Positions 1 to 3,000 of a stretch of 3,206 bases of DNA are shown here, one piece after another. The stretch lies in assembly GCF_003334255.1 (NCBI RefSeq), contig NZ_QOWU01000127.1; one strand, given 5' to 3'. The first letter of the stretch is position 1. Each line of letters begins with the position of its first letter. Source of the DNA: Escherichia coli (GTDB taxonomy: Bacteria; Pseudomonadota; Gammaproteobacteria; Enterobacterales; Enterobacteriaceae). The position numbers were made by a program.

Positions 1-3000
1 GAATGGCGAAAAACGGGCTGTATGGTGTGAGCGTCAGACGGCTTGTTGGTGCCTGATGGCGGTCCTGCCGGATGCGCAGAATCTTCTGATAGTTCAGAAG
101 GTGCAGATGATGAATAAAGAGAGATGCCGGACAATCGGAAGAAAACGTTACACCACAGGCGCAATGTGCTTCATGCTGTTTGTGTGGCTTGGTGGTGTGC
201 TGGCTCTTGTTGCTACAGCTGCGGTGGTAATGCAGTAAAAAAAGGGGAGCAACATGCTCCCCGACCAGAAGAAAGACGTTTGATAACAATTAGTGAGTTG
301 TTACGTCTTGTCCAGAATATCATAGCAACACTCTGTTGCAGTGATACCGATCGCGATTTTAGCGAATTCCATCATAAATCCCCTGATTTTTAAGCCTGAA
401 GCAGTCAAAGGAATTTCTATGCCCTATATCGATATCACCACGATGCGTGGGATGATGCCGCGCGTTGTGACATCCATGCTGCCCGAGCATTCCGCTGTAC
501 TGGCGGAGGACTGCCATTTCCGGTTTGGTGTTATTACACCAGAACGTCAGATATCCGGGGTTGAGAAAACATTCACAATTAAGCCAAAAACAATTTTTCA
601 TTACCGTGACGATTTCTGGTTTGCATGGCCGGATGTGGTGGATGTGATCCGCAGTCCGATCGCTCAGGACCCCCACGGGCGTATTTACTACACTGACGGG
701 CGTTTTCCTAAAGTGACGGATGCGACCATTGCCACAAAAGGGGACGGGAATCACCCGACATCATCGTATCGTCTTGGGATCCCCGCGCCGACGACAGCTC
801 CTGTCTGTACTGTCCAGCAGGGCGGTGATGTTTCTGACGATAACCCGAATGATGATGAAACCCGGTTTTATACGGAAACCTTTGTCTCAGATTATGGTGA
901 AGAAGGTCCGCCAGGTCCGGCGTCTCTGGAGGTAACACTCCGTACTCCGGGAACTGCGGTACAACTGACGCTGGCTCCGGTGCCATTGCAGAATGCCAGT
1001 ATTAAACGTCGTCGTATTTATCGTTCTGCATCAGGTGGAGGGGAGGCGGATTTTTTACTTGTGGCTGAACTGGATGCATCCGTGCTCAGTTACACGGACA
1101 AAATACCGGCGAAAAACCTTGGACCTTCGCTGGCGACATGGGATTACCTGCCGCCGCCAGAGAATATGACAGGCCTTTGCCTGATGGCTAACGGTATTGC
1201 CGCCGGGTTTGCCGGTAATGAAGTGATGTTTTCGGAAGCGTATCTGCCGTATGCATGGCCGGAAGTGAATCGTCACACGACGGCAGAAGATATTGTAGCT
1301 ATCTGTCCGCTCGGAACGTCACTGGTGGTGGCGACAAAGGGTGAGCCTTATCTGTTCAGTGGTGTATCGCCTTCCACAATTTCCGGCTCCAGAATTCCTT
1401 CAATGCAGGCGTGTCTGAGCAGGCGGAGTATGGTCGCGATGGAGGGCTTTGTGCTGTATGCAGGAACAAATGGCCTGGTGTCTGTTGATGCAAACGGTAA
1501 TGCCGCTCTGGCGACGGAGCAGATTATTTCGCCGGAACAGTGGCAGAGTCAGTTTAATCCGGCCTCCATTGTGGCTTATCCCTGGCGTGGTGAATACATT
1601 GCCTGTTACACGAAACCGGATGGTAAGCAGGATGTGTTTGTCTTCAACCCGGCAGGTATGGATATCCGCTACCTCAGTACACCTTTTGACTGCGCATGTG
1701 TTGACCTGGTTAACGATGTTATGCGGGTGGTATCAGGACAAAACATGTCTGCGATCGCCGGAGGGAGTTTGCCGTCGACAATCAGATGGCATTCAAAGGT
1801 ATTTTCCCTTCCGGAAAGAACCTCTTTCTCCTGTCTCAGGGTGAAGTCTCCGACGCCAGAGCGGGTGGGAATTACTGTGCTGGCAGATGATGTTCCGGTG
1901 ATTCACCTTGCACCTGGAAGCTTTTCGGGAAGCGTTGTGAGATTACCTGCTGCAACCGGGCAAAACTGGCAGATACTGGTTTCCGGTTTTGGTCAGGTTG
2001 AACGTATTACACTCAGTACATCGATGTCGGAGCTGCCGGTATGACAAAAAAACCGTGGCGCGCAGGAAAGGATTTATCTGCGGTTGTGGAAAATATGGAG
2101 ATAGGGACAGGACAACGTGGCGATGGTCGTCATGCTTTTGTAACCCGTGAAGAACTGGTCGGTCTGAAGCTGGCCCGTCGCCGGACTTCAGGTGGTGCCG
2201 CATATGCCCTTAATCCGGGGATTGAGATGGACAGCTCTGTAATGGTCGTTGATTTCCCATCGAAACCTCAGAATTTTAAGGCGACAGGGGGATTTGGCTC
2301 GGTACTGCTTGAATGGGATATGCCGAATTATCGCGGTCATTCACTGACTGAAATCTGGCGGGGTACGGAGGATGACCTTTCGGATGCGGTGCTGGTTGCC
2401 ACGACGCCGGGGCAGGTTTACGGTGATCCGGTTGATCCGGGCTGGTCGGGATTCTACTGGATACGCTTTGTTAATGCAGCGGGAGTGAAAGGGCCATGGA
2501 ACGCGGTAAAAGGCACTCCCGCACAAACCCAGATAAGCGTTCAGGCCATTATTGACCAGATCAAGGAGGAGGCTGCAAAGTCACCGGTGGTGGAAGAGCT
2601 GCGTAAGGAAATAAAGAATGCTCAGGGGCAGGCAGTAAAGGACGCGGCAATCGAGACGACGGAAGTTGTGGGTAATCTCAGGGAAGAAACACTGAAAACT
2701 ATCGGTGGTATTGATACCCGTGTTACGGGGATGAATAAGTCAACCAGTGAAGAGCTTAATAAGGTAAATGAGCGCATCACTAAGGTGGATAAAGAAGGCG
2801 GTGAAGCTTTCCTGGCCATGTGGTCAAAAAAGACCGGTGTTGAGGGAATTACTGCGGGGATCGGAATTGTTGCAGGAAAAGATGGTGAAGGGAAGCCGGT
2901 AAGCCAGGTTGCAATTTCGGCATCGCAGTTGTTTGTCTTTGACCCGAACAACCCGGATAACACAGCCTATCCCTTTGTGGTGTCAGGTGGAAAAGTTGTT

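Follow-up and report, generated by a model that had tools for sequence, protein, structure and literature searches.

A predicted small membrane-protein gene at the end of the eib adhesin cassette in a 933W-like prophage of Escherichia coli

The 3,206-nucleotide stretch of DNA analysed here (hereafter the window) belongs to contig NZ_QOWU01000127.1 of Escherichia coli assembly GCF_003334255.1 and carries near its left end, on the plus strand, a small open reading frame (ORF) which a first-pass annotation had placed at positions 56–238. Comparison with related loci identifies this small ORF as the last gene of a horizontally mobile module of about 2.6 kb with the order eib – ORF-156 – small ORF, in which eib codes for an adhesin and ORF-156 for a predicted regulator. 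By sequence, the small ORF is the already deposited ORF-60D, and it also corresponds to phrog_9340, a protein family of unknown function; its identity as ORF-60, taken together with its membership in the eib module, is in our view very probable. New in the present work are the corrected length of the gene, the evidence for selection acting on it, its tight association, across mobile elements, with eib and a gene for a LuxR-type regulator, and the recognition of its remnants in Stx phages of the 933W type. The Eib proteins are immunoglobulin-binding, serum-resistance and chain-forming adhesins of commensal E. coli and of those E. coli which produce Shiga toxin (Stx) and are negative for the locus of enterocyte effacement, and the control of their expression is poorly understood; the three genes provide a concrete unit for the study of how Eib-mediated adhesion is controlled.

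The small gene as part of the eib module

GenBank record AF151675 (prophage P-EibD, E. coli ECOR-9) is 100% identical to the window over positions 40–262 and annotates, one after the other, eibD, ORF-156D, ORF-60D and an L0124-like gene, so that the neighbours agree with those of the small ORF studied here; the small ORF is thus an already deposited ORF of the Eib cassettes. The GenBank deposits of the year 2000 also comprise ORF-60A and ORF-60C of prophages P-EibA and P-EibC (AF151091 and AF151674, respectively).

Locus DNA was extracted from about 20 loci, and then from 50 more. ORF-156 is preceded by the gene for a protein of 497 aa bearing a YadA-type anchor, the immunoglobulin-binding trimeric autotransporter adhesin Eib. 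In the 40 loci harboring the complete triad, ORF-156 is located directly downstream of eib and directly upstream of the small ORF, the distance between the ORF-156 stop and the start of the small ORF being –4, –1, +5 or 43–54 nt. Counted over loci with enough flanking sequence, which are not phylogenetically independent of each other, eib, ORF-156 and the small ORF occur together in 40 of 43 informative eib loci, and the small ORF is found in none of the 29 loci lacking eib, although an intact ORF-156 homologue is present in 11–15 of the latter. Three separate lineages are represented among these eib-less loci, all of them devoid of the small ORF. Wherever the cassette is complete the small ORF is intact, also in records without annotation such as that of P-EibE. 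The three eib loci that possess ORF-156 but not the small ORF make up a single plasmid-type lineage (L027–L029), in which ORF-156 is followed by unrelated DNA with a fragment of an ABC-transporter gene. The region ~1–4500 of these loci comprises, in succession, genes for a second and much larger YadA-family adhesin (1439 aa), a BamE/OmpA-domain protein (possibly a TpgA-like accessory protein), a short YadA-anchor protein and the ORF-156 homologue, the small ORF being absent.

The occurrence of the small ORF follows that of eib and not that of ORF-156 (40/43 eib loci against 0/29 eib-less loci, including the three lineages with an intact ORF-156 homologue), which would be in line with a function as an Eib helper or buffer at the inner membrane, which, at the level of Sec/YidC, of signal-peptide processing, or as a sensor of envelope stress, might aid Eib biogenesis at native levels or blunt export stress. 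Dedicated accessory proteins are associated with other trimeric autotransporters, namely, SadB with SadA and TpgA with Ata. However, the eib lineage L027–L029 does without the small ORF, and the predicted protein lacks periplasmic residues that could chaperone a passenger domain. Moreover, the coding sequences of eibA, eibD and eibG alone conferred surface display and chain formation on E. coli TOP10 (PMC12511318); the small protein therefore is not required for export of Eib. We assign a low probability to a helper or buffer function.

The triad was found between the tail genes of 933W-like podophages (the window and L017), at the end of lambdoid prophages, following lom, tail fibre and DUF4376 genes and next to dinI or chromosomal genes (L004, L011, L015, L016, L018 and L030), ahead of the eaa gene for an autotransporter of the SPATE (serine protease autotransporters of Enterobacteriaceae) type (P-EibA, P-EibC and L020), and in an element resembling an integrative and conjugative element (ICE; L008). 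Because the cassette also resides outside phages, in the ICE-like element, a phage-specific role of the small protein such as superinfection exclusion is weakened. Exclusion, that is, a prophage-encoded protein of the inner membrane that blocks the entry of DNA, had been put forward as speculation in the first-pass annotation. The small ORF does share with the gene of HK97 gp15 its size class, the membrane location of its product, its place among the tail genes of a temperate phage and its variable presence, the segment occurring in only some relatives. In contrast to gp15, with which no homology was found, it never stands alone but always lies within the eib–ORF-156 module, and the module occurs both on the ICE-like element and at the ends of prophages with unrelated tail types. 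No homology to a known exclusion or defence protein, such as HK97 gp15, P22 SieA or T4 Imm, emerged: searches with PADLOC gave no match, and the only PHROG match is to the family of unknown function. Most 933W-like phages lack the ORF. The suggestion hence gained no support, and we regard exclusion as a slim possibility.

By nucleotide identity, the window itself is part of a 933W-like (Sepvirinae) E. coli prophage. It is 99.9% identical to Escherichia phage PhiR12_3 over all 3206 bases, 99.8% identical to PhiR5_2 and 98.3% identical to GER2, and from base 205 onwards it shows about 90% identity to 933W, VT2-Sakai and ~180 other Stx-converting phages of the Sepvirinae; matching prophages are present in 421 of 5426 complete E. 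coli genomes. At least 80% of the window is covered by 183 phage records, but at least 80% of bases 40–262 by only six, and the segment 40–262 is absent from most 933W-like phages. The region is thus present in a few and lacking in most of the closely related phages. Its interpretation as a moron-type insertion, as proposed initially for the small ORF, holds for the whole eib cassette of ~2.6 kb (6 versus 183 related phage records) but not for the small ORF on its own. The GC contents of the small ORF (0.485), ORF-156 (0.537) and eib (0.475) compare with 0.517 for the structural genes; outliers are confined to the DNA upstream of eib (0.33) and the spacer that follows the cassette (0.39).

In the eaa context, the small ORF ends in a different variant of its last ~12 codons (VVALFTAAAVLLQ), which places the right-hand recombination junction of the cassette inside its 3' end. 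A SPATE-type gene (eaaA/eaaC, coding for an S6 peptidase) directly follows the small ORF at L033 (5932–9939), L034 (3317–7324) and L020 (from 4283), corresponding to P-EibA, P-EibC and one chromosome.

Coding status and predicted topology of the product

The frame of the small ORF extends over positions 56–238 (plus strand, 60 aa) and contains an internal 43-aa form starting from ATG 107, with a second ATG at position 110. Both ends of the size range of 43–60 aa given in the first-pass annotation are therefore present in the window, but the longer form is not conserved across lineages. The conserved small gene occupies positions 107–238 and codes for 43 aa (MMNKERCRTIGRKRYTTGAMCFMLFVWLGGVLALVATAAVVMQ), or for 42 aa if translation starts from ATG 110; a Shine-Dalgarno-like GAAGGTG, read from the sequence at positions 97–103, precedes ATG 107 by 3 nt and ATG 110 by 6 nt. 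In relatives, PGAP calls the gene as 107–238, and the phrog_9340 profile, which has 43 positions, matches the small ORF over all 43 of them with E=9.6e-30. Across the family, the conserved start is a Met located 9–11 codons ahead of an RKRY motif (ATG 107 or 110 in the window), Shine-Dalgarno-like purine runs precede this Met in all nine lineages inspected, and the conserved product comprises 39–43 aa, as deduced from a comparison of ~40 loci. The deposited model of ORF-60D, by contrast, has 60 codons, among them 17 N-terminal ones which are not conserved.

These 17 codons lie on the stretch 56–106, a spacer between ORF-156 and the conserved start, whose ATG 56 overlaps the TGA of ORF-156 (54–56). 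The spacer DNA (e.g., CCGGATGCG) translates as LPDA in the window and as YRMR in L011, a stretch of 26 nt common to L011 and L016 is read in different frames, and 2–5 codons ahead of the conserved Met the small-ORF frame is closed in L014, L017 and L018. In lineages with a 175-aa ORF-156 product, the stretch is replaced by the C-terminal tail of the regulator itself, with an ATGA overlap. Because the spacer is read in different frames or closed in other lineages, the extension from ATG 56 does not qualify as conserved coding sequence; taken together with the 43 positions of the PHROG profile and the PGAP call, this sets the length of the predicted product at 42–43 aa. Since ATG 56 overlaps the upstream TGA, a 60-aa isoform is possible in the lineage of the window. 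The length of an ORF is in itself uninformative here, as the window contains about 12 ORFs of at least 60 aa when all six frames are considered.

Other readings of the region were considered and discarded. Frame 2 is open for ~90 codons further upstream, but this part overlaps ORF-156 in another frame, and it does not continue a longer upstream protein. In agreement with the first-pass annotation, the small ORF is not the C-terminus of a longer known protein, the upstream gene being in another frame (frame 3) and stopping at 54–56, and it is positioned between this gene and the L0124-like and tail-tip genes. Longer database entries of the small protein are partial calls at contig edges. An ORF in plus frame 3 (124–393, 89 aa) is shortened to 52 aa in PhiR12_3 by a 1-nt change in an A-run, and its frame shows a pN/pS (ratio of nonsynonymous to synonymous differences per site) above 1. 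A minus-strand ORF at 148–255, which lacks a conserved start, can be expected to arise as a by-product of the sense frame, and the C-terminus of another one at 301–408 is different in 933W.

Selection was assessed by computing pN/pS over the last 32 codons of 11 sequences. In frame, pS was 0.57 and pN 0.13, resulting in a pN/pS of 0.22, which decreased to 0.15 for the first 20 of the 32 codons; the two shifted sense frames gave values of 1.4–1.9. Variable sites were distributed over codon positions 1, 2 and 3 as 14/10/27. The single antisense frame with low pN/pS shares its third positions with the sense frame and has no conserved start. Start codon, Shine-Dalgarno sequence, length and position of the stop are maintained across lineages that are only 62–80% identical. 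These data show purifying selection on a real protein-coding gene, which is conserved as coding sequence in relatives. An ORF without a functional protein, retained by hitch-hiking or because the DNA or RNA is what matters (for instance, as 3' untranslated region (UTR) or terminator of the cassette), could account for the fact that gene callers often skip the small ORF and for the mosaic nature of its last ~12 codons, with their different right-hand junctions. It is hard to reconcile with synonymous sites that are free to vary next to an invariant amino-acid core (pN/pS 0.15–0.22), and with the maintenance of the start, the ribosome-binding sequence, the length and the stop, and we consider it very unlikely.

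Relatives of the small protein were sought by a word-indexed search of 5.8 billion proteins and by a profile search run exhaustively against 1.84 billion representatives. The former yielded 28 relatives, with E. coli as the organism in every source that names one, and the latter 10 clusters, consisting of variants or truncations of the small protein and one spurious transmembrane match in a protein of 1215 aa; the family accordingly is very narrow. A tblastn search of a plasmid collection gave no match. Neither did searches of NCBIfam, PADLOC and, with sequence profiles, the PDB, nor a Pfam search with the small protein even at E<=10; among 12 aligned members, a single match to DUF2474 (E=0.02) was treated as noise. 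A scan of the whole window against Rfam at E<=1 was likewise negative.

The N-terminus of the 43-aa form (MMNKERCRTIGRKRY) contains six Lys or Arg residues among 15, in keeping with the Lys/Arg richness noticed in the first-pass annotation, and is followed by one hydrophobic helix, which comprises the last 25 residues. In the numbering of the 60-aa form, the Kyte-Doolittle mean over 19 residues is at least 2.0 for all segments from 34–52 to 42–60, with a peak of 2.41. AlphaFold2 places the helix at residues 18–42 of the 43-aa form, encoded by positions 158–232, with about one residue beyond it; hydropathy and the model, as well as invariant alignment columns, delimit this region. As the positive charges are confined to the N-terminus and a single residue follows the helix, the small protein is predicted to be tail-anchored in the inner membrane with its N-terminus inside, this cytoplasmic part being short and basic, and to have practically no periplasmic tail. 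Hydropathy, modelled helix and purifying selection together bear out the initial reading as a genuine gene for a small, C-terminally anchored membrane protein. The properties expected of a holin, pinholin or spanin, namely, a place in the lysis cassette and a charged C-terminal tail on the cytoplasmic side behind the membrane segment, were not found, the gene being situated between tail genes in an eib cassette and the protein ending one residue past the helix.

Conservation is distributed unevenly along the protein. The half of the helix predicted to lie in the inner leaflet, G18–V31 (GAMCFMLFVWLGGV), is invariant or nearly so, the outer-leaflet half is fixed only at L34, A38, A39 and the terminal Q, and the cytoplasmic peptide, exemplified by MMNKERCRTIGRKRY, MNRDKTSEYSRKRY, MSSSGNQANKKRRY, MEQKKIRCGRRKY and MKQANLKYVKKRY, is variable except for the basic cluster and a Tyr. 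Small residues come in pairs (G18/A19, G29/G30, A38/A39), which recur every 9–11 positions and thus fall on one face of the helix. The invariant half and the stripe of small residues suggest specific helix–helix packing. Given that G18–V31 is invariant at a pS of 0.57 while the cytoplasmic peptide varies, the helix would be the functional part of the protein. The described richness in rare codons is weak for the small ORF of the window (4 of 43 codons against a background of 5.4% in the flanking genes, binomial P=0.20); across 10 lineages, the Arg codons are indeed mostly rare, 16 of 23 being AGA, AGG or CGG.

The ORF-156 regulator and possible roles of the small protein

Only the 3' end of ORF-156 is contained in the window (positions 1–56, plus strand, comprising the last 17 codons and the TGA at 54–56); in tblastn, residues 140–156 match positions 3–53 with 100% identity, and the gene is annotated in PhiR12_3 and, as ORF-156D, in AF151675. 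In the triad lineages its product has 156–175 aa; in L001 the gene extends from 5586 to 6056 and is termed "hypothetical" in RefSeq. Pfam gave no match to ORF-156, and a profile of 21 members, compared with the PDB, retrieved exclusively LuxR/GerE helix-turn-helix (HTH) proteins, with E values of about 0.1. An AlphaFold2 model (mean predicted local distance difference test, pLDDT, 85; predicted template modelling score, pTM, 0.79) consists of a small alpha/beta domain and a helical C-terminal domain. When compared with the PDB by Foldseek, the model matched the full-length NarL/FixJ response regulators StyR, LiaR, FixJ, VraR, DesR, EvgA, RcsB and VpsT, with probabilities of 0.96–1.0 for StyR, LiaR, FixJ, EvgA and RcsB, and its homologues in the AlphaFold database bear the name LuxR family regulators. 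The prediction for ORF-156, made with good confidence, is thus that of an atypical NarL/FixJ (LuxR-type) regulator having a receiver-like domain and a GerE-type HTH domain. Following strand beta-1, it shows T7-R8-N9 instead of an acidic pair, D52 after beta-3 being retained (alignment A4); as the acidic pair is missing, it probably works without phosphorylation.

ORF-156 is a candidate regulator of Eib expression or of cross-talk between adhesion and motility. MrpJ, PapX, TosE/TosF and MatA/EcpR are regulators whose genes lie at the 3' end of adhesin operons, and the arrangement of ORF-156 is alike in that the gene of a LuxR/HTH-type regulator lies directly downstream of an adhesin gene and in the same orientation. 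We know of no coupled membrane protein of ~40 aa in these operons.

In one prophage lineage (L058–L069; in IMG/VR locus L059, positions 3001–3700), an intact gene for a 180-aa ORF-156 homologue occurs together with neither eib nor the small ORF. Copies of the 3' part of an L0122-like gene flank it on both sides (VILDADKK.IQCVVRPLQI...), giving the impression that a duplication-associated rearrangement inserted or kept only the regulator gene.

A hairpin followed by a T-run, resembling a terminator, is located after eib. The start of ORF-156, preceded by AGGAAGGTG, comes 35 nt further on; a sigma-70 consensus on the plus strand was not found upstream of eib or of ORF-156. Because this hairpin and T-run separate eib from ORF-156, the latter and the small ORF are probably expressed by leaky read-through of this element and less strongly than eib.

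These observations lead us to favor an accessory or regulatory role. The small protein would be made in small amounts, together with the ORF-156 regulator, by way of the leaky terminator; its membrane helix, as the functional part, would pack tightly with a protein of the host inner membrane or with itself; and this packing might tune signalling or the adaptation of the cell to production of the Eib adhesin. It would thus act as an accessory or regulatory partner of the eib–ORF-156 circuit in the manner of MgrB, SafA or MgtR. The reasons for preferring such a role are the coupling to the regulator gene, the loss together with eib, the combination of an invariant inner-leaflet helix with a variable peptide, and the occurrence on non-phage elements. 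Single-helix inner-membrane proteins of E. coli and Salmonella which have less than 70 aa, whose genes lie within or at the end of an operon with that of a regulator or target, and which contact a larger membrane protein include MgrB (PhoQ), SafA (PhoQ; co-transcribed with the regulator gene ydeO), MgtR (MgtC/FtsH) and AcrZ (AcrB). With these, the small protein has in common a size below 70 aa, the single transmembrane helix and a gene linked to that of a regulator, and its invariant helix would suit an action by direct contact. The analogy is functional only, as there is no sequence similarity to any of the four proteins, and MgrB and SafA act through periplasmic tails, which the small protein lacks.

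Several points weigh against this proposal. Homologues of ORF-156 persist without the small ORF in three lineages, so the regulator does not need the small ORF, and the non-independence of the loci noted above applies to the counts on which the association is based. No homology to characterized small membrane regulators was detected in the Pfam, NCBIfam and PDB profile searches. When ORF-156 and the small protein were modelled together with AlphaFold2, joined by a flexible Gly/Ser linker, there was no sign of a complex (mean pLDDT 59.8, below 50 for the N-terminus of the small protein), the test being weak, with 10 rows in the paired alignment and no contact output. The literature searched, which did not include the original eib papers, contains no mention of ORF-60, ORF-156 or the protein accessions, and recent papers on Eib do not discuss the downstream genes. 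On balance, we give the explanation as a whole, i.e., identity, module and regulatory mechanism taken together, about an even chance of being correct; its most specific part, the mechanism based on an intramembrane partner, is put forward tentatively and is less probable than that.

Among the alternatives, a membrane-active toxin that would depolarize or permeabilize the inner membrane, resembling those of type I systems or the L protein of MS2 and held in check by ORF-156 or by tight translational coupling, with a function in addiction, abortive infection or persistence, ranks first. In its size, its extreme hydrophobicity and its location on mobile elements, the small protein resembles Hok/Gef, Ldr, TisB, ShoB, Ibs and Zor, and with MS2 L it shares the combination of a basic N-terminus and a hydrophobic portion at the C-terminus. 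The mostly rare N-terminal Arg codons (16 of 23 across lineages) and the position behind a leaky terminator suggest deliberately low expression. Furthermore, a gene for a DNA-binding protein followed by a small ORF, with overlapping stop and start, is reminiscent of toxin-antitoxin operons, and lineages that kept ORF-156 but lost the small ORF recall orphan antitoxins. Unlike the genes of type I toxins, however, which form independent loci having a long 5' UTR, the small ORF is part of an operon behind a regulator gene. There is no match to Hok/Gef, Ldr, TisB, Ibs, ShoB, Zor or DinQ or to any Pfam, NCBIfam or PADLOC model, and no antitoxin RNA of Rfam in the window. The only conserved element on the minus strand is the 3' terminator described below, and since the DNA beyond it differs between contexts, a conserved antisense RNA is lacking. 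The 14-residue segment of the helix is invariant on every face, which argues for specific packing more than for generic damage to the membrane, and, with intact copies in 40 of 43 eib loci, the small ORF shows nothing that would suggest frequent inactivation. The first-pass annotation had named a toxin as a speculative option, which gained no support from the present data; we judge it improbable.

The alternatives may be ranked in the order toxin, Eib helper or stress buffer, and superinfection exclusion, all of which are possible, with a non-functional ORF as the unlikely last. By way of its invariant helix, the small protein might dock, as a previously unrecognized intramembrane adaptor of a mobile adhesin module, onto a host inner-membrane protein of signalling or quality control and thereby couple production of Eib and the activity of its regulator to the state of the envelope, or else it might represent a new type of protein-regulated membrane toxin that stabilizes the cassette; we regard this prospect as doubtful. 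Considered apart from the eib unit, the small ORF is an ordinary example of an uncharacterized small membrane protein.

Cassette end, phage backbone and remnants in other phages

The last conserved element of the cassette, detected in a terminator scan, is a hairpin at 244–262 that adjoins a run of seven A residues (237–243). The hairpin has the structure GGGGAGCA-ACA-TGCTCCCC and comes right after the stop codon in 10 of the 15 different downstream variants, with changes in the loop and one compensatory change from C-G to T-A in the stem. The length of the A/T run varies, being A7 in the window, A6 in PhiR12_3 and A7 plus G5 in L002. As the A-run always precedes the hairpin and a T-run never follows it, the hairpin constitutes a canonical intrinsic terminator for the minus strand only. 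Plausibly, it stops convergent transcription, for instance from dinI or host flanks, from entering the cassette; it may also stabilize the 3' end of the cassette mRNA. An antisense RNA ending at this terminator was considered as a feature of the cassette and rejected, the DNA beyond the hairpin being different in different contexts.

Positions 263–418 form an AT-rich, strongly structured spacer (39% GC compared with 52% in the structural genes); its AT-richness, like the hairpin, had been correctly described in the first-pass annotation. The spacer belongs to the phage backbone in common with 933W and contains the 5' UTR and the ribosome-binding site of the L0124-like gene. Compared with shuffled sequences, the region 263–425 showed folding z-scores of about –3.5 on both strands, with further hairpins at ~273–309 and ~318–346; neither an Rfam match nor a consensus promoter on either strand was found in 263–425. 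A small RNA ending at the minus-strand terminator and a structured 5' UTR are candidate roles for this region. Positions 347–450, where the aligned segment ends, are 100% identical to 933W, while the identity of the flanking coding DNA is ~90%.

The gene order in the window, following the annotation of PhiR12_3 and that of RefSeq, is completed by an L0124 homologue and most of L0125, both on the plus strand and part of the phage backbone. The L0124-like virion gene, outside the cassette, extends from 419 to 2044 (541 aa) and matches phrog_511, "internal virion protein", with E=7.5e-272. In the records of 933W and P-EibD it is annotated from GTG 341 (567 aa), and by PGAP and in PhiR12_3 from ATG 419 (541 aa); the shorter model, whose ATG is preceded by the ribosome-binding site AAAGGA, looks the more plausible. 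The L0125-like gene, annotated as coding for a "phage tail tip fiber protein", starts at 2041 and runs off the window at 3206. Outside the region corresponding to the window, a gene of the Hok/Gef toxin family is annotated between lom and an L0129-like gene in a prophage of a uropathogenic E. coli (L002, 11279–11419); in the corresponding records of PhiR12_3 and 933W it is unannotated.

Remnants of the cassette were recognized in 933W (L003, AF125520), where positions 5638–6060, equivalent to window positions ~1–262, represent a decayed eib cassette from which eib is gone. The gene L0123 of 933W is an internally deleted homologue of ORF-156, whose final 33 codons persist out of frame. What is kept of the small ORF amounts to its last ~11 codons, with the hairpin behind them. 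Between ~160 and 280 records match the window over 194–262 only, and apparently most Stx phages, e.g., VT2-Sakai, carry such decayed remains. The decay seen in 933W explains why the match between the window and most Stx phages begins no earlier than base 205, as well as the restriction to 194–262 mentioned above.

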